A stretch of 64,000 bases of DNA from the sequence record MT478991.1; one strand, given 5' to 3'. The notes under the pieces are model-generated. The model saw only the letters and a program-made list of their open reading frames with translations. It was not told the origin of the DNA and did not search any database. Positions 401-15,208 of this stretch are shown piece by piece. The stretch's first letter is position 1. Each line of letters begins with the position of its first letter. The position numbers and the translations under genes were made by a program. This DNA comes from Escherichia phage vB_EcoM_011D4.

Positions 401-3400
401 ATGGCAGATTTTTCTCAACATTTCAAGGCCACATTTGGCTTTGACGCTGGTAATGAAAAGGTCGTCAATGTAGCATTGGCTGATAAGAATGTCAACACCG
501 ATGCGGTCAACGTTGAATTTTTCAATTACCATAATGGTATTACTCAGTATGACACAACTCGCGGTTATGATCAATACGGAACTACAATCTATCAAAACCG
601 TCCATATTATGCAAAAGAAGATATCACAAAGCCAGCAGGTGATTTTGACCCGACTAAATGGCAAGCACTGCGCACGGACCCACGTTGGGATTATGTTGCA
701 GCAACTTCCGGTGATACTCCTTTACAGTCTGGTGATTATATCGCAGCAGATGGTCAATTTGCAAACTTGACTTTCTCTATGCCAACTAAACCAGCAGAGG
801 GAGACACTATAACAGTAAAAGATATCGGTGGCAAGTGTGGTGTTAACGAATTATCGTTCTTGAGTTCAGGACATGAGTTTTACCATAACGGTAATGTGTA
901 TAACCGAAAATGGTATTGCACTACCCCGTATGCAATGAACTATTTCATCTTTGTTCGTAATCGTTGGCATGTTTATCAGACAGGAACAGAGCCACGCGGT
1001 GTGTATGCACAGCCAGCGATTGATGCTATTCAAATGCAGAATGGTGATCAGGTATTTCGTCGTAGTTCGTTGGGTAATATTACCTTAGTGCTTCCTAAGT
1101 TTGCCAACAATGGCGACATGATCCAGACTACAGACCTTGACGGATTAACCGCAACCAACCACGTTACGGTTAAAGTTCATGAGCACGCAGAAGAACAATC
1201 AATTGGCACGTCCGGTCTAAAAGAGATTATCGGTAAGCGTAGCGGTCATGGTGTATTCATCTTTGACAAGACGGAAAACTTATGGCGTTTGTGGGATGGT
1301 GATCAGTCTGTTCGTCTTAAACCGATCATCGATGACACTCGCTTGCAACCTAATAGCTATGTTGCCGTATTTGGTGATCGTGATGTTACTCTGACGCTGC
1401 CGACCAATGTCGAGCCGGGTGATCGTATTCAAGTTTCTATGCAGTATATGCACGGAAACCAGAATTGCCGTATTATCACCGCCACAGAGGATACAAAAAT
1501 CCTTATGCAGAAAAACATGGTTCAGTTTCCTAAGCGTAGCGAGTACCCATTCAATGGGACCGATACATGGACGGGAGTATCTGAATTGTCTTTCAACGCT
1601 GCAAATGATTATGTACCTTATCTGGAGTTCTCTTATTCAGAAGGTGATGATGGTAAGAAATACTGGTTGGTGGCACATGCTCACCCGATTGTAGAACGAG
1701 TAGATCCGACTCGTAAAGATCGTGTTGGTGTAATTGCACTGGCTACCCAGGATGAAACAAACAAAAACCATGAAGATAATCCTAGCGACGAAGTTGCGGT
1801 GACTCCAAAGGTTCTGGCTAATAAAACAGCCAACGAAACTCGACGCGGTATTGCTCGCATTGCAACTCAAGCGGAAACGCATCAAGATACTGGTTCCAGC
1901 TTCCTGGATGATGTTATCGTTACGCCTAAAAAGTTAAATAATTGTGTTGCTACCGAAGCCCGTCGTGGTGTGATGGAAATTGCAACCCAGCACGAAACCA
2001 ATGAAGGTTTAGACGATACCCGCGCTATTACTCCTAAGAAATTAGAAGAACGTCGCGCTTCCGAAGATCTCGCTGGTATTGCTGAAATTGTTCAGGCTGG
2101 CGGTAGTGCTGCCGCTCGACGTGGCGAAGCTGGTACAGGGATCTATAACATCAACGACCATGCTAAAATTGTTACGCCACAAAACATCAACGAAGTCAAG
2201 GCGACCGAAACTTCCCGTGGTGTTGGCTATCTGGCAACTGACGCGGAAGTGCAAGGGGCTACAGAATCAACCCCGCAAGATGCTTTACTAATCACGACTC
2301 GCACGCTAACGAAACGTACTGCTACCGAATCGCGCACTGGTATCGCTGAAATTGCAACTCAGGAAGAAACAAACTTAGGTCAAAGTGATAACCATATCAT
2401 CACGCCTAAAAAGCTGCATACTCGCCGCGCAACGGAAACTTTACATGGTTTAGCAGAAATTGCAACTCAACCGGAGTTTGACGCAGGTCTTGACGATGCT
2501 CGCATTTCTACCCCATTGAAGATTAAAACCTTCTTTGAGAATGCACAGCGTTTGAAAGTAGATCCGACTCAGGGGCTTAACCTTACTGGTGATTTGTGGC
2601 AAGGTATCATGATTCGCGGTCTGGACGCAACCGAAGACACAAAAGGTGTCGCTAAAGTTGCTACTACTCAGCTTACGGATGCTGGTCAAGATGATACTAC
2701 AATCATCACGCCTAAAAAGCTGCAAGGCAAAAAGGCCACCGAAGGTAAAGAAGGTATTATCCGAGTTGGTACTCAAGCCGAAACCGTGGCTGGTACACTG
2801 GCTAATGTAGCAATTTCTCCGAAGAACTTCAAATATGTTGTTCAGACAGAGGATACATGGAAAGCAACCGAAGCGCGTCGTGGTTTCTTGAAAGTTGCCA
2901 CTCAGGAAAACTGTTTTGTTGGTGATAATCTGCAAGGTTCTACTCAAGAACTAGGAAACTACCAGCATGACGGAATTGCTGTTACTCCGAAAGGATTAAA
3001 CTACGCACTTGCTAATTTCTTACCTAAGATGGCAACCGCTCAGAATAGTTTGAAATTGGGTAACGTAGAGGCCGCTAAATGGGCGCGTAGAGACATTGAC
3101 CAGACCATAGAGAGCAATTACACGTTTAATAAAAACGTTAACGTGAAGGGCGATTTAGGGTGCTTAAAATCTGGTTCCTTTGAAACTCTGTCTGTGACTA
3201 AGAACTCGACCGATGGTCCGAGTAATGGTCATCTGGTGTTGGGTGAGCGTGGAGTTGACGGTCACACCGGAATTACTCTGCATGGCACAACCGCATCGGA
3301 AGGCATGAAAAACTCGTGGTCTATTATCGTTGGTGGTACTGGAACAGCGCAAGTTGTTGATAGTGATGCTATCGCTTTCGGTAAAATCAATGATGGTGGA

Positions 3401-7077: not shown

Positions 7078-9996
7078 ATGGCAGATTTAAGCAGAATCCA
7101 ATTTAAACGTACTAGCACTAAAGGCCGTCGACCTGATGCTGGTACGATGAATCCGGGGGAATTGGCAATCAACCTTGCGGATCAATATCTTCTTACTAAA
7201 AATGATTCCGGTGCTATTATCAATTTAAGTTGTCCTCCGGTTTATGACCGCGATGTTACAATGGCAGGTAAGGTTAAAGGTAATAATTATATCTTAAGTA
7301 AAACCGCTAACTATTTGGAAGACCAGACAGCGCGAGATCTTAACTACTTTGGTGCTTTCCGTACCAATGGTCTTGATGGTCTTCTCGAACTCACGCTAAA
7401 CGTTCCTCATTCTTCTGGTGTTCAGCATGGTCGAGGATTTACTTTCCAGTATGGACACACTGGATCGCGTGTAGAAACTTATGGCTATAATAAAGAAGGT
7501 CAAAAAGCATTTAGCTATAAAATGTATCATGAAGGTGATAAACCAACTCCAGGAGAATTGAACGTTTATAGCAAACAAGAAGTTGACCGTATGTTTGTTA
7601 AGAACGTTAAACTTTCTACAGGTTCTGGTGATATCGTTGAAGGCTATTTTAAATTAGCAACTGCAATGATTCCACAAAACGGTCTTAGCGTATTTTTCCG
7701 TATTCATGGTGGTAACGGATATAACGTTACTGCATACGACCAAGTTGATATTGTAGAAATTGTTATTCGCAGTGGAAATGGTCGCCCTAAAGGTGTTAAC
7801 GTTATTGCATATCGCCGAAATACAAACAAATCATTTGATGTTTTGGCTGTTAATACTTCTGGTGATAACTATGATATCTATGTGAAATATCAGCGTTACA
7901 CTGATAACGTTATTGTTGAATTTGGTAAAAGTGTTGGTGTTAATCTGGTAGTTCATGACGTTCCAGATTTTGTTGCTGAACGTCCTGCTGGCGATAATGT
8001 TATTGGCGGTCGTGCTGTAACTCTTTTTAACACAGAAAATAAGCGTGGTGTGTTGAGTTTTGACGATAACACACAAAACAGCTATGATATTGTTCATATG
8101 AGTAATGATAAAGGTACTGGTCGGAAATATATTCGTAAATTCCGTAGTAACTATAATGAAATGATCTGGCACGAGACGGTTCAAGGTAATACATATCGAT
8201 TGGCAACCGGAACGACTGATGCATCGGAAGTTTTTAGAATTACTAGCCGCACCATGTTTACTGGTAAAGGTGTATTTGATGCCGGACAAAACGTTCTTAG
8301 ATTAGAGCGTCCTAGTAACCAATCAAACTATATTGAATGGCAAGATCGCCGAAATGGTGCTGATGTTCGTCAAGGTTGGATCGGTTTTGGTGGTGCTGAA
8401 ACAAATGACTTCCAATGGTATAGCGATCACGCAAAAAACTCATTCATGTTGGATGCTAACGGTCAATGCTCTATTATTACTGGTGCGACCAAAATTGTAT
8501 ATACCAACGGACAATATTATTCCGCTAACTCTGATGCATATCGTATGATCTATGGCAATTATGGTGCATTCTGGCGTAATGACGGGACTAAAGTTTATCT
8601 TCTGTCTACGGCTGAAAATGACCGTTTTGGTGGCTGGAACGGAAACCGACCATTCATTTACGATCTTACTTCCGGTAACGTTCAATTAGGCGGTGATGGT
8701 AACGAAGATGCATTAACGTTAGAATGTGCTTCTCGTGCCGCTCGCTTTAGTAATGACGTTTACATTAAGAAAGGGCTTTTGACTTTCGACGCTGGGCGCG
8801 CTGGATCTCGCGATTATATTCGATTTAATCATTGGGGTGATAGTAATAATGCCCGTGATAACGTTTTGTACATAGAAGATAGTCAAGGCCGACATTTTAG
8901 CACAGAACGTGCGATGGGTACTGGTGCTCTTAAAGCATACTTCTTAGGCGATCTTGAAGTCGGTGGTAAGTTTACTTGGGGTAAAAATACAGCTACATCT
9001 AGCTTTAATATTCGTGCATGGGGTAATGATTCCCGTAAACAAGTATTAGAATGCGCGGATGAAAGTGGTTGGCATTGGTATACCCAACGTCCAGGCGGTC
9101 CGGGAACAAATGAGATTATATTCAATGTTAACGGGAAAGTTCAATCTCAGGGTTTTGAGACTTCCGGTAATATTAAGATAACTGGACCAGACATTGAGTT
9201 TCGTCGCACTGGCAATAAGCACATCTGGTTTAGAGATCCTGACGGCTTAGAATTGGGTTTGATTTATTGTGACGACAACGGCGTTATTCGTTTCCGTGGT
9301 CAAAAACAAACTCAAGATTGGATATTTGGCAATAAGACGATCCAATTAGGAACTAGTGCTACTGTTAGTGGATCTGGTAACGGTTTGATTCGCGGACAAG
9401 TTCAAGGTGGTGCTTGGACACAATGGAGAGATCGTGCTGCTGGCTTATTGGTTGATTGTCAGAATACCGAAAACTCTGCACATAACGTGTGGAAAGCGAC
9501 ACATTGGGGCAAATTCCACATTGCAGCTATGGGTATTCACGTTTCAGGTGGAAATATAGCAAACGCATTGGCGCGTCTACATGTTAATGATGCAACTTTT
9601 GACCATAGTGCGAGCGGTGACTTCCAGGCAAGCCGTAATGGTAGCTTTAACGATGTTTATATTCGTTCTGATGCTCGCCTTAAAATCAATAAGGAAGAGT
9701 ATAAGGAGAATGCCACCGATAAAGTTAATCGCTTGACTGTGTACACCTACGATAAGGTTAAGTCTTTGACGGACCGCACTGTTATCGCTCATGAAGTTGG
9801 TATTATTGCTCAGGATCTTGAAAAAGAATTGCCGGAAGCAGTAACAACTTCTAAGATCGGCGATCCTGATAAGCCAGAAGAGATCTTAACAATTTCTAAC
9901 TCTGCTGTCAACGCTCTTTTAATTAAGGCGTTTCAGGAAATGAGCGAAGAACTTAAAGCCGTTAAAGCTGAACTAGCGGAACTTAAAAAGAATTAA
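7078..9996 (+). CDS. 37: long tail fibre distal subunit gp37 with C-terminal intramolecular chaperone (S74-type) domain (972 aa)
   Basis: N-terminus ...IQFKRTSTKGRRPDAG..GELAINL matches T4 gp37; C-terminal ~109 aa carries the SDARLK autoproteolysis motif (Ser864, nt 9667-9669) and a coiled-coil tail. Confidence 0.9.
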   Translation: MADLSRIQFKRTSTKGRRPDAGTMNPGELAINLADQYLLTKNDSGAIINLSCPPVYDRDVTMAGKVKGNNYILSKTANYLEDQTARDLNYFGAFRTNGLDGLLELTLNVPHSSGVQHGRGFTFQYGHTGSRVETYGYNKEGQKAFSYKMYHEGDKPTPGELNVYSKQEVDRMFVKNVKLSTGSGDIVEGYFKLATAMIPQNGLSVFFRIHGGNGYNVTAYDQVDIVEIVIRSGNGRPKGVNVIAYRRNTNKSFDVLAVNTSGDNYDIYVKYQRYTDNVIVEFGKSVGVNLVVHDVPDFVAERPAGDNVIGGRAVTLFNTENKRGVLSFDDNTQNSYDIVHMSNDKGTGRKYIRKFRSNYNEMIWHETVQGNTYRLATGTTDASEVFRITSRTMFTGKGVFDAGQNVLRLERPSNQSNYIEWQDRRNGADVRQGWIGFGGAETNDFQWYSDHAKNSFMLDANGQCSIITGATKIVYTNGQYYSANSDAYRMIYGNYGAFWRNDGTKVYLLSTAENDRFGGWNGNRPFIYDLTSGNVQLGGDGNEDALTLECASRAARFSNDVYIKKGLLTFDAGRAGSRDYIRFNHWGDSNNARDNVLYIEDSQGRHFSTERAMGTGALKAYFLGDLEVGGKFTWGKNTATSSFNIRAWGNDSRKQVLECADESGWHWYTQRPGGPGTNEIIFNVNGKVQSQGFETSGNIKITGPDIEFRRTGNKHIWFRDPDGLELGLIYCDDNGVIRFRGQKQTQDWIFGNKTIQLGTSATVSGSGNGLIRGQVQGGAWTQWRDRAAGLLVDCQNTENSAHNVWKATHWGKFHIAAMGIHVSGGNIANALARLHVNDATFDHSASGDFQASRNGSFNDVYIRSDARLKINKEEYKENATDKVNRLTVYTYDKVKSLTDRTVIAHEVGIIAQDLEKELPEAVTTSKIGDPDKPEEILTISNSAVNALLIKAFQEMSEELKAVKAELAELKKN

Positions 9997-10309: not shown

Positions 10310-10966
10310 ATGCAAGTTTCTGAAAAAGGGAAAGACTTTGCTATCTCAAATGTCCTGCGCGCTATTTTCACAACTAAAAGCACGGAGTTGCTCGTACTTC
10401 GTGTTTTTGCTGCCGTCGTGTTGTCCATATTAGCATTTGTCGTTTATAGTAAAAACGAGTTATTTGCGCTTTATAAAGAGACTCGTTATGAGACTTATGC
10501 TCACGTTCTCCAGGTAGAGAAAGACCGCAATTTTGATAATGCAGCACAGGAGCAGTTACAGATAGTTCATGTGTCGGCTGATGCCGATTTTTCTGCTGTT
10601 TTTAGTTTTCGTCCGAAAAACCTAAACTATTTTGTTGATTTGGTGGCATATGAAGGAAAGCTACCGCATACAATCGATGAAAAAAATTTAGGCGGATTCC
10701 CTATCAATAAAACGAGTGAAGAATATCGTAGACATCTTTTAGGTAAATCCTATTTTACCGATAAAGATTTCCAGTATATTCCATCAAGAGAAAAGAAATT
10801 AGAGAGTATCGATATAGGGGTTATGTATTCTTGTCCTATATTCAATCTCGATAATGTCTATTCTGGTAGTATCTCCATTGCATGGAAGAATAAACCGGAT
10901 ATTGACATTGAGAATTTAGATACTCTTTGCAATCAATCTGCCAGAATCCTCGGAAGGATTAGATAA
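10310..10966 (+). CDS. t: holin (T4 t-type, 218 aa)
   Basis: Same length as T4 T; strong identity to T4 holin (EQLQIVH.S.DADFSAV.SFRPKNLNYFVD..AYEGKLP...RILGR). Confidence 0.92.
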   Translation: MQVSEKGKDFAISNVLRAIFTTKSTELLVLRVFAAVVLSILAFVVYSKNELFALYKETRYETYAHVLQVEKDRNFDNAAQEQLQIVHVSADADFSAVFSFRPKNLNYFVDLVAYEGKLPHTIDEKNLGGFPINKTSEEYRRHLLGKSYFTDKDFQYIPSREKKLESIDIGVMYSCPIFNLDNVYSGSISIAWKNKPDIDIENLDTLCNQSARILGRIR

Positions 10967-10970
10967 CTTA

Positions 10971-11003
10971 AAGGGGAAGCCTTTCGGCCTCCCCTTCTTT
11001 TTT
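10971..11003 (+). terminator. rho-independent terminator (AAGGGGA..GCC-tttc-GGC..TCCCCTT + T-run)
   Basis: Long GC hairpin then TTTTTTATT after the t stop, at the convergence point of plus and minus transcription. Confidence 0.7.
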
Positions 11004-11250
11004 ATTGACGCATAGACGCGCCTGAATCGCATTTTGACGCTGTATGATGAAAACATGTAGCGTACCAGTCATCGGCTTGTTTGTCTTCGTCAGAAAACGC
11101 GTAATTTCGTTGTATGCCGTTTTCTACTTTGACCAGTGCAATAGCTGTTTCTGGAAGATCAATCAATCGGACAAAATCACCATCTTCCCACTCTACACGA
11201 GCAATATCATAGCCCATCTCAAAGTATACAATCGCTTGTTCTAATTTCAT
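11002..11250 (-). CDS. hypothetical protein (82 aa)
   Basis: ORF track; start overlaps stop of upstream gene. Confidence 0.45.
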   Translation of the reverse strand: MKLEQAIVYFEMGYDIARVEWEDGDFVRLIDLPETAIALVKVENGIQRNYAFSDEDKQADDWYATCFHHTASKCDSGASMRQ

Positions 11251-11570
11251 TCTGGAAACTTCCCGTAAACATTCTCTGCCAACTTACGTGCATCTTTTAC
11301 AATATCTTTCATGTAATGACTATAATTTTTAGCTAGATCAATGATACAATCAACAAAGAAGTAATAGCGTCGCAGTGCTACCAGCTCAACATCTTCAAGA
11401 TGACCATTTTCTCCAATCGATGAAATATATTTAAATTCCTTTCGGATCGCGTCCATCGCTACATTAACTTCTTTTATAATATCTTTAGTATTATATGCAC
11501 CTCGACTAATCAAAATTTTGGTTATGTCTTCTGCTTTTTCGTGAAAGTTGTCAATTTCAAACTCGATCAT
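11247..11570 (-). CDS. hypothetical early protein, paralog of 11685..12017
   Basis: Refined ATG at 11570 with GAGAGGTGA RBS (track start 11576 is a GTG extension); C-terminus ...ENVYGKF. Confidence 0.55.
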   Translation of the reverse strand: MIEFEIDNFHEKAEDITKILISRGAYNTKDIIKEVNVAMDAIRKEFKYISSIGENGHLEDVELVALRRYYFFVDCIIDLAKNYSHYMKDIVKDARKLAENVYGKFPE

Positions 11571-11684
11571 AATCACCTCTCATAATTTCACGCTGTTGTT
11601 TCAACATTTTTTCGTGGTTTGCTAATTCTATACCTTGTAATAGCATAACCAGTGCAATTTTCAATGATTCATCATCTTTCATAA

Positions 11685-12017
11685 TCAAAATTTACCGAAA
11701 ATATTCTCTGTCATAATTCTTGCTTCGTCGATTATTTTCGTCATGTTCATGGTGTAGTTATGATCATTTAGTGCTTTAATAACAACGAGCAAGGAATCTA
11801 AAAACACTCGATACCGGGTATATTCTACGCTATTTGTGAATACCGATGTTTTCTCGACTTTATCGATCAGATAGCCTAAAACCGATAGCGCCTCGTTTAC
11901 TTCCCTTGTTACTTTATCGGCGCTAAACAACACCGGATAAAGACGCGGTGTGATTAACCGCGCTGCCTCTTTCAATTCGGTTGCTTTCCATGATTCATAT
12001 TTGTCATAATTAAACAT
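11685..12017 (-). CDS. hypothetical early protein, paralog of 11247..11570
   Basis: ORF track; aligns with neighbour (EVN.A...Y..F.D..I...Y...KII.DAR...EN.FGKF). Confidence 0.55.
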   Translation of the reverse strand: MFNYDKYESWKATELKEAARLITPRLYPVLFSADKVTREVNEALSVLGYLIDKVEKTSVFTNSVEYTRYRVFLDSLLVVIKALNDHNYTMNMTKIIDEARIMTENIFGKF

Positions 12018-12029
12018 TGTATAATGTCC

Positions 12030-12362
12030 TTACAGATGAAAACCTGTTACAATCACCGCATCGATCATACCGCTAGGAATAAACGGTTCACCCTCTTTTA
12101 TTTCAACTTTGAATTGATGCCATTTCGCTAATACTTCTTCCGGTACACCCAGCGATTCGGCGTCTGCTTTAGTTTCATCCATAATCCAACTAGGCTGCAT
12201 GAGAGCATAGTTTACATAGTCCATTTCTGGGGTCATGTCATCAATGTTAATATATTTGCAGTTGACGCGTTTCAGAATTTCAAATTCTTTATTGTCAACC
12301 TGTACCATGTATAATTCAGTAGTTTCTGGAATCAGTTCCCACACAATCAGTACATTTTTCAT
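12030..12362 (-). CDS. hypothetical protein (110 aa)
   Basis: ORF track; minus-strand early block. Confidence 0.5.
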   Translation of the reverse strand: MKNVLIVWELIPETTELYMVQVDNKEFEILKRVNCKYINIDDMTPEMDYVNYALMQPSWIMDETKADAESLGVPEEVLAKWHQFKVEIKEGEPFIPSGMIDAVIVTGFHL

Positions 12363-12370
12363 AGTTCACC

Positions 12371-12739
12371 TCACTTAACAAAGATTTTCTTTAATGCTTT
12401 CAGGATCGTTGCTTCCGGCGCTTCTTCCGGTGGAGGAAGCAATTCTACCACTTCCTCTTCCAACTCGATATAGTCTACCAGATATTCTACATAGAATGCA
12501 AGTGCTTCCATGAAATTAAATGCTACATCCGATTCACCACAAGCGCCCACATGCATTGTATAAACATCACTGCGATCAAGTTTGTGGATGCTTCCCAGAT
12601 AGTTTCGGTTATACCAGACTTCCCACACTTTCAACTTTCCGGTTTTTGTTGATGTTTTATAATCGGTTTCGTAATGATGCAATTGACGTTGCAAATCATT
12701 GATAATAACACATTTTTCGTAATTGTTTTGAATTTCCAT
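12371..12739 (-). CDS. hypothetical protein (122 aa)
   Basis: ORF track. Confidence 0.5.
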   Translation of the reverse strand: MEIQNNYEKCVIINDLQRQLHHYETDYKTSTKTGKLKVWEVWYNRNYLGSIHKLDRSDVYTMHVGACGESDVAFNFMEALAFYVEYLVDYIELEEEVVELLPPPEEAPEATILKALKKIFVK

Positions 12740-12964: not shown

Positions 12965-13252
12965 TTATTTTCGGTTGTGGTCACGATATGTTTTAAAATA
13001 TCCCTCGTACCACGGTAAAACATCTGGATTTTTACCACTATACAGACCTTTAACCATCATGTCAATAAGACCGTCCGGTGTTTGATAATTACCAGCTTTT
13101 ATAAGCTCTCTGATTAAAATTTCCCTGTATATGTCTTTCGGATCTTCGTAATCAACTTGTATCGTGGTTGTTGTCTCGCTTAATTTGGTTTCTGGAGTAT
13201 CTTGCATCGCCTTCCACCAATCTTTTGTAATCTTCATGTTATTGAATTGCAT
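12965..13252 (-). CDS. hypothetical protein (95 aa)
   Basis: ORF track. Confidence 0.5.
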   Translation of the reverse strand: MQFNNMKITKDWWKAMQDTPETKLSETTTTIQVDYEDPKDIYREILIRELIKAGNYQTPDGLIDMMVKGLYSGKNPDVLPWYEGYFKTYRDHNRK

Positions 13253-13263
13253 AATTTAACCTC

Positions 13264-14022
13264 TTACTTGCAAACGTATTGATCTACATCAATTGCGCCA
13301 CCGAATGTAGGATGACGTTTTTCAAATCGAATAGTTCCGTCGTTTGGTTCGAAAACGGAGTATTCATATAGATCTTTCTTGCCAACATTCTTATAAAACC
13401 CGCCTTTAGTCATAACGGTTTCTTGTACGTTTGCTTTGTGTACGTTGTATTCATCAATGTATACAAAATCAACCATCTTCCCATTTTTAATGGTTACTTT
13501 AAGATCTCCTGGTTGATTTCCATATTTGGCATACAGTGGCGCTTCTTTAATTTTTGTGGAAATTCCATCTTTCATACTCCACTCATAACGAACGGTGCAT
13601 TGATAGGTAAAAGTTTCGACCTTCGGTTCTTCCACCACTTTTTCTTCCTGTTTCGGTTGTTCTTCGTCAACCTTCACAGAAGTCTCTGAATCGCTTTCTG
13701 ACGCGGTTTCTTCTTTAGGTAATACATTCATCAAGTTTTGGATTTGAGCGTTGTATACAGCCTCCAGTGGCTGAATCTGCCCGATATTGATCATTGTATC
13801 ACGAATAGTTTTATTCCAGTTGCGTTGCTCTTGTTTAAGAGACGGATCAATCTTAACAGCCTTAACATATACTTCATGAAGTTTCGAATCCAGCGCGGAG
13901 ATAGACTCGTTAGCACAAATAAACTTCTCTGATTTGGTAGTCGCTTTAGCGCAATCAAAGGACGCAGCGTTAGCACCGAAAGCAGTAGCAGAAAGAACGA
14001 TAGCAGCGATAATGTTTTTCAT
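13264..14022 (-). CDS. secreted protein with N-terminal DUF1311/LprI-like (lysozyme-inhibitor-like) domain (252 aa)
   Basis: Signal peptide MKNIIAAIVLSATAFGANA; then C..KA.T..E..IC...L..LD..L..Y......QR.W motif typical of DUF1311; acidic/lysine-rich linker; Cys-bounded C-terminal domain. Confidence 0.65.
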   Translation of the reverse strand: MKNIIAAIVLSATAFGANAASFDCAKATTKSEKFICANESISALDSKLHEVYVKAVKIDPSLKQEQRNWNKTIRDTMINIGQIQPLEAVYNAQIQNLMNVLPKEETASESDSETSVKVDEEQPKQEEKVVEEPKVETFTYQCTVRYEWSMKDGISTKIKEAPLYAKYGNQPGDLKVTIKNGKMVDFVYIDEYNVHKANVQETVMTKGGFYKNVGKKDLYEYSVFEPNDGTIRFEKRHPTFGGAIDVDQYVCK

Positions 14023-14049: not shown

Positions 14050-14084
14050 GGGAGTATCTTACTACTCCCTTAATCCGGTGTCAA
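14050..14084 (-). promoter_or_regulatory. PeSL-type early promoter: TTGACA-17-TAAGAT with GGGAGTA/TACTCCC stem-loop
   Basis: On minus strand -35 at 14084..14079, -10 at 14061..14056, perfect 7-bp inverted repeat 14050-14069; upstream of 13264..14022. Confidence 0.6.
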
Positions 14085-14327: not shown

Positions 14328-14362
14328 GGGAGTATCTTACTACTCCCGTTTCTTTACGTCAA
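14328..14362 (-). promoter_or_regulatory. PeSL-type early promoter: TTGACG-17-TAAGAT with GGGAGTA/TACTCCC stem-loop
   Basis: -35 at 14362..14357, -10 at 14339..14334, stem-loop 14328-14347; followed by AAAGGAGAATCAC ATG. Confidence 0.6.
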
Positions 14363-14640: not shown

Positions 14641-14675
14641 GGGAGTATAATACTACCGATGACCTTTGGCGTCAA
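14641..14675 (-). promoter_or_regulatory. PeSL-type early promoter: TTGACG-17-TATTAT with short AGTAT/ATACT stem
   Basis: -35 at 14675..14670, -10 at 14652..14647. Confidence 0.5.
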
Positions 14676-15179: not shown

Positions 15180-15208
15180 ATTATGCAATGATGGATTTGT
15201 GAAGTCAA
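15180..15208 (-). promoter_or_regulatory. early promoter TTGACT-17-CATAAT
   Basis: -35 at 15208..15203, -10 at 15185..15180; immediately downstream of the terminator at 15214-15248. Confidence 0.5.

Follow-up and report, generated by a model that had tools for sequence, protein, structure and literature searches.

Two short genes of similar sequence lie side by side near the end of an early phage operon, with a 41-codon open reading frame (ORF) fitted between them. Did the two genes arise by duplication, and does the frame between them encode a protein? The locus lies in a 64,000-nucleotide stretch of Escherichia phage vB_EcoM_011D4 (MT478991.1; hereafter the window), which belongs to a Krischvirus (RB49/JSE/GEC-3S-like, a T4-type coliphage) and has 98-99% nucleotide identity to 45 or more Krischvirus genomes. 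The genes are annotated as "hypothetical" in dozens of RB49-like phages, and the early regions of T4-type phages abound in tandem paralogs and tiny overlapping ORFs; in this sense the finding is an ordinary one. The annotations of RB49, Phi1, JSE and GEC-3S mention neither the paralogy nor the allele classes, nor the relaxed constraint on the small ORF, that we describe here.

The operon and its tandem paralogs

In the ORF listing all three genes are on the minus strand and are read in the order paralog B, micro-ORF, paralog A (Table 1). The RB49 annotation already contains them as ORF257 (NP_891828), ORF256.1 (YP_001883328) and ORF256 (NP_891827), respectively, and amino acid identities to the orthologs in RB49, Phi1, JSE, GEC-3S and other phages are 96-100% for B, 88-100% for the micro-ORF and 95-98% for A, with gene order and overlaps unchanged. 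Together with a Tad2-like gene they make up an early polycistronic operon with sigma-70-type promoters upstream, and the initial annotation's placement of the pair in an early island fits these promoters, of which the candidate at 14084..14056 is the nearest. In GEC-3S a promoter is annotated at the corresponding site, before an LprI-like gene, and a terminator on both strands at the position that matches the stem-loop beside holin t, which is also annotated in Makalu_003. The slot order g258-[B]-A-Tad2-like-holin was found in every contig examined. The listed ORF of A begins at a GTG (11247..11576, minus strand, 109 aa); this start was dropped on Shine-Dalgarno (SD) spacing for the ATG at 11570, which is SD-supported (GAGAGGTGATT-ATG) and gives a protein of 107 aa.

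Table 1. Features of the paralog locus and its operon (window coordinates).
Feature	Position	Strand	Basis or remark
Bidirectional stem-loop terminator, early operon/holin t boundary	10973..10994	.	GGGGAAGCC-TTTC-GGCCTCCCC
Tad2-like (DUF2829) gene, 82 aa	11002..11250	-	ATG overlaps the TGA of A (ATGA); Pfam PF11195
Paralog A (RB49 ORF256), 107 aa, predicted four-helix bundle	11247..11570	-	ORF listing, phrog_9457, AF2
Hypervariable allelic cassette of A (codons 1-94)	11289..11570	-	Identity comparison of alleles with flanks
Micro-ORF (RB49 ORF256.1), 41 aa	11557..11682	-	ORF listing; phrog_17009
Direct repeat copy 2, TGATTATGA (A start context), 112 nt from copy 1	11567..11575	-	Sequence and blastn self-match
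SD and spacer of A, GAGAGGTGATT, inside the micro-ORF 3' end	11571..11581	-	Anti-SD duplex -7.1 kcal/mol
Direct repeat copy 1, TGATTATGA (B stop and micro-ORF start)	11679..11687	-	Sequence; blastn self-match of query positions 2-10 to 11575..11567
Paralog B (RB49 ORF257), 110 aa, predicted four-helix bundle	11685..12017	-	ORF listing, phrog_9457, AF2
Closest sigma-70-type (early) promoter candidate upstream of the operon with B, micro-ORF, A and Tad2-like gene	14056..14084	-	TTGACA-17-TAAGAT, 10/12

It had been proposed that A and B encode alignable proteins resulting from local duplication and divergence. Pairwise alignment by BLASTP is significant (E=7e-8; 16/43 identical), with a shared C-terminal pattern ...RY..F.D......Y...M..I..AR...EN..GKF. 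Both proteins also match the phrog_9457 HMM over their full length (A, E=1.6e-55, residues 1-107 of 107; B, E=2.7e-43, residues 7-110), as do 11 of 11 diverse family members, and end-to-end identity in family alignments is 27-33%, with the common motifs EVN.A, RY.F.D and AR...EN..GKF. The AF2 models of A (pLDDT 85.7, pTM 0.80; helices 2-22, 28-54, 59-82 and 87-102) and B (pLDDT 91, pTM 0.84; helices 9-30, 33-51, 64-86 and 92-107) have four helices in the same order, and the model of A superimposes on the BFVD models of the phage JEP8 B ortholog (TM 0.73) and the ECD7 allele (TM 0.89). A and B are thus confirmed as true tandem paralogs, beyond chance. Their family consists of soluble proteins of ~105-113 aa that share a conserved AR.L.EN.YGKF(PE) tail at the C-terminus and are predicted to fold as up-down four-helix bundles. 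As to timing, the duplication itself stands, while the idea of a recent local event does not: A and B are only 27-33% identical, and A-type and B-type proteins form separate clades across all Krischvirus variants. The duplication is therefore ancient.

The family (phrog_9457) is restricted to Krischvirus. It occurs in 58 of 50,697 phage records, all of them Krischvirus; profile searches gave 6 matches among 1.84e9 representatives and ~30 clusters among 5.8e9 proteins, and IMG/VR had it at two loci only. None of these profile and IMG/VR searches found an A/B homolog outside Krischvirus-type contigs. Within the genus A is always present, while B is missing from 10 of the 58 GenBank genomes.

A sharply bounded polymorphic cassette

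The slot occupied by A and B is a sharply bounded polymorphic cassette. Flanking sequences are 96-99% identical between genomes, in contrast to 64-66% nucleotide and ~50% amino acid identity between the allele classes of A; B is ~76% identical between genomes or absent. More specifically, the identity of B is 98-100% across 45 GenBank Krischvirus records and ~70% for the kvi type, and the ECD7/Makalu type lacks the gene. In A, identity drops at ~11573 and returns at ~11288, and these break points fall at the ribosome-binding junction (GAGAGGTTGATTATG), which is conserved, and at the final ~14 codons of the gene, which are conserved as well. The junction motif GAGAGG(T/C)(T)GATTATG is kept in all allele architectures: it directly follows the stop codon of B in kvi and in two further loci (L009 and L011), and that of g258 in ECD7. 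B and A alleles are combined in more than one way: the RB49-type B allele was found paired with four different A alleles (in the window, L004/L027, L025 and L026). Homologous recombination at the short conserved flanks probably accounts for the exchange of A and B alleles.

Purifying selection acts on each allele class, with pN/pS of ~0.1 (0.09 for B and 0.11 for A within alleles). Between classes, dS is 0.6-1.7 and dN/dS 0.2-0.4; since the latter is below 1, diversifying selection is not demonstrated, and the old alleles could be imports from unsampled relatives. Similar variability has been described for the hyperplastic regions and modular shuffling of T4-type phages, where RB49-like genomes that are nearly identical elsewhere differ by replacement, insertion and deletion of small early genes, the exchanges taking place at short, conserved regulatory sequences (Arbiol et al., 2010, PMC2839356; PMC4122927). 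The joints differ, however, being here a ~15-nt ribosome-binding junction and the last ~14 codons of A, and there promoter-plus-stem-loop (PeSL) cassettes (PMC2839356; PMC4122927).

The micro-ORF between the paralogs

The initial annotation described a minus-strand micro-ORF that starts 2 nt after the upstream stop codon, overlaps the downstream start and possibly bridges the pair, and treated its status as uncertain. The geometry is exact. The frame is listed as 11557..11688 (minus strand, 43 aa from a TTG) and is 41 aa long from the ATG at 11682; the TGA of B (11687..11685) and this ATG (11682..11680) are separated by 2 nt, and its end at 11557 overlaps the first 14 nt of A. It matches phrog_17009 over its full length (E=1e-32), is annotated in GEC-3S, RB49 and Phi1, and entered the RB49 annotation, as ORF256.1, through Arbiol et al. 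(2010; PMC2839356). Bridging holds for the window and not as a general feature of the pair, since B and A are only 9-15 nt apart in other B-A arrangements. The micro-ORF is carried by a lineage-specific insert of 112-117 nt that accompanies only the RB49-type B allele and is bracketed by the two copies of the 9-nt direct repeat TGATTATGA; it is missing from the kvi, L009, L011, L026 and ECD7 architectures. Searches of 5.8e9 proteins and 50,697 phage genomes found no micro-ORF homologs outside this slot in Krischvirus with an RB49-type B. An RNA element or regulatory site was ruled out as the content of the insert by its fold z-score (0.29), the lack of an Rfam match and the lack of a promoter or terminator consensus inside it.

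The micro-ORF has no ribosome-binding site of its own: its best anti-SD duplex, at -3.0 kcal/mol, is the weakest in the operon, compared with -5.8 to -9.6 kcal/mol for the stand-alone genes. For initiation, only termination-reinitiation from B appears plausible. Nor was purifying selection found on its amino acids, although the substitution counts are small and the sampling partly biased, several loci having been picked for a differing micro-ORF protein: pN/pS was 1.05, 0.43 and 0.75 in samples of 14, 17 and 22 loci (S/N 2/9, 6/11 and 6/19), against 0.05-0.15 for B, A and the Tad2-like gene (S/N 61/19 together; Fisher p=3e-4, 0.047 and 0.003 for the three samples, respectively). In the GenBank cross-check, nearly every nucleotide difference from the window was an amino acid change in 43 of 43 copies. 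In total, 19 distinct replacements fall inside 36 codons, with the N-terminal 27 residues less variable than residues 28-34. Amino acid constraint is thus relaxed or absent, which leaves the micro-ORF unsupported as a conserved small protein and bears out the earlier caution. The frame itself is open in all 22 variants, and since each of the two remaining sense-strand frames across these 120 nt contains ~6 stops, its openness is non-random. Continued openness among close relatives weighs little, however, given a probability of ~0.48 that ~11 changes introduce no new stop. Taken by itself, openness in all 22 variants would be compatible with a translated, weakly selected peptide.

These observations bear on three readings. 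The one that we favour, and consider probable while well short of established, combines ancient four-helix paralogs in a variable slot with a micro-ORF that is read by coupling and whose peptide is barely constrained. The micro-ORF would most likely be a young ORF, read by termination-reinitiation after the stop codon of B, and would at most pass ribosomes on from B to A. Alternatively, the micro-ORF might encode a functional small protein specific to the RB49-type B allele, such as a helical adaptor or modulator of B/A. This would be in keeping with the non-random open frame, the purine-rich, coding-like first codon position, the inclusion of the CDS in many genome annotations and in phrog_17009, the strict linkage to one B allele and the lower variability of the first 27 residues; the pN/pS of 0.43 in the 17-locus sample (p=0.047) also still allows weak constraint. 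Set against this are the higher ratios in the other two samples (0.75-1.05), the amino-acid-changing character of the GenBank differences and the number of replacements, a C-terminus that varies with context (36, 39 or 41 aa), the missing SD, the lack of homologs elsewhere, the modest weight of openness at the observed divergence and the dispensability of the micro-ORF in relatives that keep the B-A pair. With a peptide so nearly unconstrained, a functional small protein is improbable, and on present comparisons the micro-ORF is probably not one; we judge this reading rather unlikely.

The insert might instead be the decayed in-frame remnant of a longer gene (a third paralog or an unrelated moron) that is now an untranslated, functionless spacer. 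Near-neutral substitution and an insert devoid of RNA structure, Rfam match, promoter and terminator would suit such a remnant, and the repeat that flanks the insert copies the A-type start context, though not its SD, as after illegitimate or short-homology recombination. A 27-nt stretch at the 5' end moreover resembles the 5' end of B (85%, E=0.057; ESLK vs ESWK in frame), but this is one of eight equal-scoring, chance-level blastn matches. Comparison with two A/B family profiles by hhalign gave a probability of 0.2%, and Smith-Waterman scores were no better than those of shuffled sequences (951 of 2000 and 1300 of 2000); a relic of a third paralog was ruled out on these three grounds. No parent gene was found in the databases searched, and the ORF spans exactly from the stop of B to the start of A in three independent end configurations, all ending within about -5 to +14 nt of the start of A, which resembles maintained coupling more than debris. 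We consider decay of a longer gene less likely still than a functional peptide. ORF256.1 illustrates cleanly how an annotated micro-ORF can keep its reading frame while its peptide sequence drifts; it counsels care in small-ORF annotation and may be a case of a translational relay or of a newly born ORF.

Candidate functions of the paralogs

Searches for a function of A and B returned little. Pfam gave nothing for either protein at E<=1 and, among 11 family members at E<=10, no AsiA match and no common family; the PDB sequence search gave coiled-coil noise only, Foldseek of the models against PDB gave E>=0.44, the BFVD fold search recovered only the family's own members, NCBIfam gave nothing meaningful, and nothing relevant was found in the literature on the A/B locus tags and Krischvirus anti-defence. 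Membership of A/B in phrog_9457 and of the micro-ORF in phrog_17009 adds no mechanism, both PHROGs carrying no functional annotation.

A has a constant neighbour. The Tad2-like gene meets the gathering threshold of PF11195 (E=3.4e-6, 27.9 bits against a cut-off of 25, profile positions 1-71 of 73), is 95-100% identical across 58 of 58 Krischvirus records, and directly follows A in all loci seen, even in the most divergent one (L008). It is translationally coupled to A through the ATGA overlap and lies beside holin t. Proteins of the Tad2/DUF2829 type act as sponges for gcADPR, the Thoeris signal, and anti-defence genes have a tendency to occur together (bioRxiv 10.1101/2023.05.01.538930). The gene directly 3' of A is a candidate for such a sponge role. 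A and B, in contrast, have no similarity to Tad1, Tad2 or another characterised anti-defence protein, and their association with anti-defence is positional only.

A and/or B could also be functional analogs of T4 AsiA, that is, anti-sigma-70 or transcription-takeover factors. In RB49, motA and asiA are not detectable (PMC1524935), and the operon end beside holin t is syntenic with the T4 segment t-asiA-arn-motA, in which asiA adjoins t on the opposite strand. The product of the neighbouring gene at 12371..12739 is homologous to a 12.8-kDa protein from the T4 asiA-motA region (PF26821; RB49 note), and A and B resemble AsiA, an anti-sigma-70 co-activator, in being small, early and, in their AF2 models, all-helical proteins at the end of an early operon converging on holin t. 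No relationship in sequence, profile or fold accompanies this likeness, however: hhalign of T4 AsiA against the family profile gave a probability of 0.3%, the Pfam search at E<=1 covered the AsiA family (PF09010), and the predicted fold is not AsiA-like. Membership in the AsiA family was ruled out by the Pfam, hhalign and fold searches together. A and B also show extreme allelic and copy-number variation in near-identical phages of the same host species, which is unexpected for a binder of the invariant region 4 of sigma-70; AsiA is generally conserved wherever it is present. An AsiA-like role is very improbable.

Because no Pfam, PDB or AsiA relationship was found, the function of A and B can be inferred only, and the context of the genes suggests a host- or defence-binding role. 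As part of the favoured reading of ancient paralogs in a variable slot, A and B would be non-enzymatic binders acting stoichiometrically on a variable host target, probably with two specificities. That the target would most plausibly lie in defence or host takeover is argued from early expression, the Tad2-like neighbour and allelic diversity. A bolder version, which we offer tentatively as possible rather than probable, would make phrog_9457 a set of counter-defence or host-takeover binders whose old, recombining alleles each act against their own variant of an immunity factor or host factor of E. coli; they would be coupled with a Tad2-like sponge, the slot would be the "anti-defence cassette" site of Krischvirus, and ORF256.1 would be a recently born relay ORF.

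In therapeutic coliphages that are near-clonal elsewhere, few allelic hot spots are as sharp as this slot, which is also coupled to a Tad2-like gene; for both reasons A and B are reasonable candidates for host-range or anti-defence screens.

Tandem paralogs and the small ORF between them

The initial annotation had described a tandem pair of paralogous genes, here called A and B, with a possible micro-ORF bridging them, and this picture was confirmed both for the paralogs and for the geometry of the micro-ORF. Both paralogs were recovered in the ORF listing on the minus strand (see table). Only TT separates the TGA of B (11687..11685) from the ATG of the micro-ORF, whose stop sits 14 nt within A; the reported 2-nt spacing from the upstream stop and the overlap with the downstream start are thus exact by sequence coordinates. 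The ATG of A at 11570 is preceded by GAGAGGTGATT, and an upstream GTG was rejected as its start because it lacks a Shine-Dalgarno (SD) sequence, in contrast to the SD-preceded ATG. More than 45 sequenced Krischvirus genomes, RB49, Phi1, JSE, and GEC-3S among them, match the 1.5 kb around the three ORFs at 98–99% identity. All three ORFs are already known, being grouped in PHROGs and annotated as hypothetical proteins in RB49 (RB49p257/p256.1/p256) and GEC-3S (BN201_0258/0257/0256); RB49 ORF256.1, equivalent to the micro-ORF, entered the annotation upon comparison with Phi1 (Arbiol et al. 2010, PMC2839356).

Features of the early operon and its convergent neighbor (window coordinates)
Feature	Position	Strand	Remarks
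Sigma-70-type promoter	15208..15180	-	
Sigma-70-type promoter	14675..14647	-	
Sigma-70-type promoter	14362..14334	-	
Sigma-70-type promoter	14084..14056	-	
LprI-like secreted protein gene	13264..14022	-	
T4 asiA-motA-region protein homolog	12371..12739	-	PF26821 (in related loci); RB49 annotation note
g258	12030..12362	-	RB49 ORF258 equivalent; phrog_4658
B	11685..12017	-	110 aa
micro-ORF	11557..11682	-	41 aa from ATG; possible TTG start two codons upstream
A	11247..11570	-	107 aa
Tad2-like (DUF2829) gene	11002..11250	-	82 aa; PF11195, 27.9 bits (cut-off 25)
Bidirectional terminator	10973..10994	both	between operon and holin t
holin t	10310..10966		convergent to operon

The claim that A and B are alignable was borne out by pairwise statistics, with significant similarity across the C-terminal 43 residues (BLASTP, E=7e-8). 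Full-length matches to phrog_9457 were obtained for A (1.6e-55) and B (2.7e-43), and end-to-end identity in family alignments is 27–33%. Common motifs are A..LT in helix 1, EVN.A at the start of helix 2, RY.F.D in helix 3, and AR...EN..GKF in the helix 4 tail. In the AlphaFold2 predictions, A (pLDDT 85.7, pTM 0.80) and B (pLDDT 91.0, pTM 0.84) each have four helices, in identical order. Searching BFVD with the A model returned the ECD7 allele (TM 0.89) and B of JEP8 (TM 0.73) as the only significant viral matches.

Architectures and alleles of the A/B slot

Among 50,697 phage records, tblastn detected A in 58, every one a Krischvirus, and 48 of these also have B. Profile searches matched six proteins among 1.84 billion representative proteins, one of them a spurious repeat protein, and about 30 clusters among 5.8 billion, all of 81–113 aa. 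The slot g258-[B]-A-Tad2-like-terminator-holin is shared by every contig inspected; its contents vary. About 43 GenBank records have the RB49 type (B, 41-aa micro-ORF, A) in common with the window. SSG23 and locus L027 combine the RB49-type B with a 36-aa micro-ORF and a different A allele; loci L028 and L029 do the same with a 39-aa micro-ORF, and contig L025 has the RB49-type B, a 36-aa micro-ORF, and an ECD7-type A. The micro-ORF is missing from locus L026, where 15 nt separate an RB49-type B from a very different A (protein P0007), and from kvi, L009, and L011, where a B allele about 70% identical is followed by 9–10 nt and other A alleles. In ECD7 and Makalu, A stands alone. The ECD7 junction TAAGGATTGTATTTTGAGAGGTTGATTATG (2477..2500 of its locus, L003), compared with window positions 12018..12030 and the kvi B-A junction, resembles the ribosome-binding region upstream of B joined to the B-stop/A-SD junction, which suggests that a precise deletion removed B to give the single-copy state, and that this state is not ancestral.

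We compared the window at the nucleotide level with the ECD7, kvi, SSG23, L009, and L011 loci. In the flanking genes, identity to the window is for the most part 96–99% (about 91–93% in L009, the most divergent locus); A is 64–66% identical, and B is 75–78% identical or missing. In 24-nt windows, identity drops exactly at the A start codon (~11573), is lowest at 11385..11456 (the helix 2/loop/helix 3 region of A), and is regained at ~11288, where the final ~14 codons of A specify ARKLAENVYGKFPE. Every architecture keeps GAGAGG(T/C)(T)GATTATG as the junction preceding A, and alleles have likely been exchanged at this junction and at the conserved 3′ end of A. Inside the RB49-type allele class, purifying selection is clear for both A (pN/pS 0.11) and B (pN/pS 0.09). 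Between classes, dN/dS is 0.2–0.4 and dS is 0.6–1.7, which makes the alleles far older than the backbone divergence.

Two public records are probably phage contamination or chimeric assemblies: P0031, a Krischvirus B-type protein deposited as 'hypothetical protein, partial [Bacillus atrophaeus]', and L025 (NCBI GCA_002832725.1, MAVA01000141.1), a 1.4-kb contig with a rearranged piece of the A/B locus.

Coding character of the micro-ORF

The frame of the micro-ORF is open in 22/22 variants, and about six stops interrupt each of the two remaining sense-strand frames over this stretch of ~120 nt. Whichever of its three ends it has, the micro-ORF spans exactly from 2 nt past the B stop to the A start region: at 41 aa it runs 14 nt into A, at 39 aa it reaches just into A, and at 36 aa it ends 2 nt short of the A ATG. 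These features favor some coding character, whether selected or recent, and would fit a weakly selected peptide, a reading that is nevertheless unlikely. The substitution pattern is evidence against a conserved peptide. Synonymous/non-synonymous counts, in samples where several loci were picked for differing micro-ORF proteins and non-synonymous changes are thus inflated, were 2/9 among 14 RB49-type loci (pN/pS 1.05; Fisher p=3e-4 vs 61/19 for B, A, and the Tad2-like gene combined), 6/11 with three loci added (pN/pS 0.43; p=0.047 vs B), and 6/19 with five further metagenomic loci (pN/pS 0.75; p=0.003). In a less biased check, the nucleotide and amino acid identity to the window of all 43–45 GenBank copies, nearly all nucleotide differences are non-synonymous: Phi1, JK32, W115, and FL15 each differ at 2 nt and 2 aa in the first 36 codons, and single synonymous extras are limited to G2248, UPWr_E1, SSG23, and ELT3. 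Total site variability (~8–9%) equals that of the neighbors and is not focused on synonymous sites. The caution originally attached to the micro-ORF was warranted, and this ORF illustrates well how an annotated micro-ORF can lack amino acid constraint.

Further observations also speak against a conserved peptide. Database searches found no micro-ORF homolog elsewhere, comparison with the A/B family detected no similarity, and the insert has no RNA structure or Rfam match. A 9-nt direct repeat, TGATTATGA (11687..11679 and 11575..11567), flanks the insert on both sides, and the SD of the micro-ORF is the weakest of the operon (-3.0 vs -5.8 to -9.6 kcal/mol). In architectures without the micro-ORF, the B stop overlaps the A SD (TTTGAGAGG), and B and A are therefore normally translationally coupled. 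The insert is most likely a young ORF read through termination-reinitiation, which would at most maintain this coupling; a pure relic is still less probable than a weakly selected peptide.

The early operon and a possible role for A and B

B, the micro-ORF, and A are the distal portion of an early minus-strand operon ordered LprI-like gene, two small ORFs, T4-region homolog, g258, B, micro-ORF, A, and Tad2-like gene. The GEC-3S annotation has promoters at places equivalent to the sigma-70-type promoters of the window. The Tad2-like ATG overlaps the A TGA (ATGA), and this gene, annotated merely as hypothetical, is 95–100% identical across 58/58 Krischvirus genomes; its product is a candidate anti-Thoeris signal sponge of RB49-like coliphages.

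A and B matched no Pfam or NCBIfam family, gave only coiled-coil noise against PDB sequences, and reached E≥0.44 in Foldseek against the PDB. A relationship to AsiA was attractive because asiA occupies the equivalent position in T4 and RB49 has no recognizable asiA or motA (PMC1524935); Pfam, hhalign, and fold searches did not identify A or B as AsiA relatives. Early expression, constant coupling to the Tad2-like gene, and a report that anti-defence genes tend to cluster (bioRxiv 10.1101/2023.05.01.538930), together with old recombining alleles and copy-number variation, lead us to propose, tentatively, that A and B are small non-enzymatic helical binders of a variable host or defence target. 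The slot would then mark a candidate counter-defence cassette.

Several other features of the region were observed. Its best sigma-70 consensus match (13037..13065, minus strand; TTGACA-17-TATAGT, 11/12) falls within the coding sequence of a 95-aa ORF (12965..13252) and may be an internal early promoter supplying distal genes including B and A. The 252-aa LprI-like product combines a signal-peptide-like sequence at its N-terminus with an LprI (lysozyme inhibitor) domain (PF07007, 24.3 bits, cut-off 22), and is predicted to be an exported early protein. In g258 (pN/pS 0.31), 13 of 19 non-synonymous variants are concentrated at residues 56–63 (Q56K/H, S58G/N/R, I60V/M, M61R/T/I, E63D), with M61I reached through two different nucleotide changes; where the sequence reads QPSWIM, L011 has KPEWVT. 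The cluster is either a local diversifying-selection hot spot or a small recombined patch. Beside the holin, the receptor-binding module (7078..9996, plus strand) varies among near-identical Krischvirus genomes (loci L002, L009, and L011): the long distal tail fibre of the window, ECD7, and SSG23 carries a Peptidase_S74 chaperone domain at its C-terminus, in kvi and L011 a gp38-type adhesin is added, and in L009 three ORFs of ~100 aa take its place.
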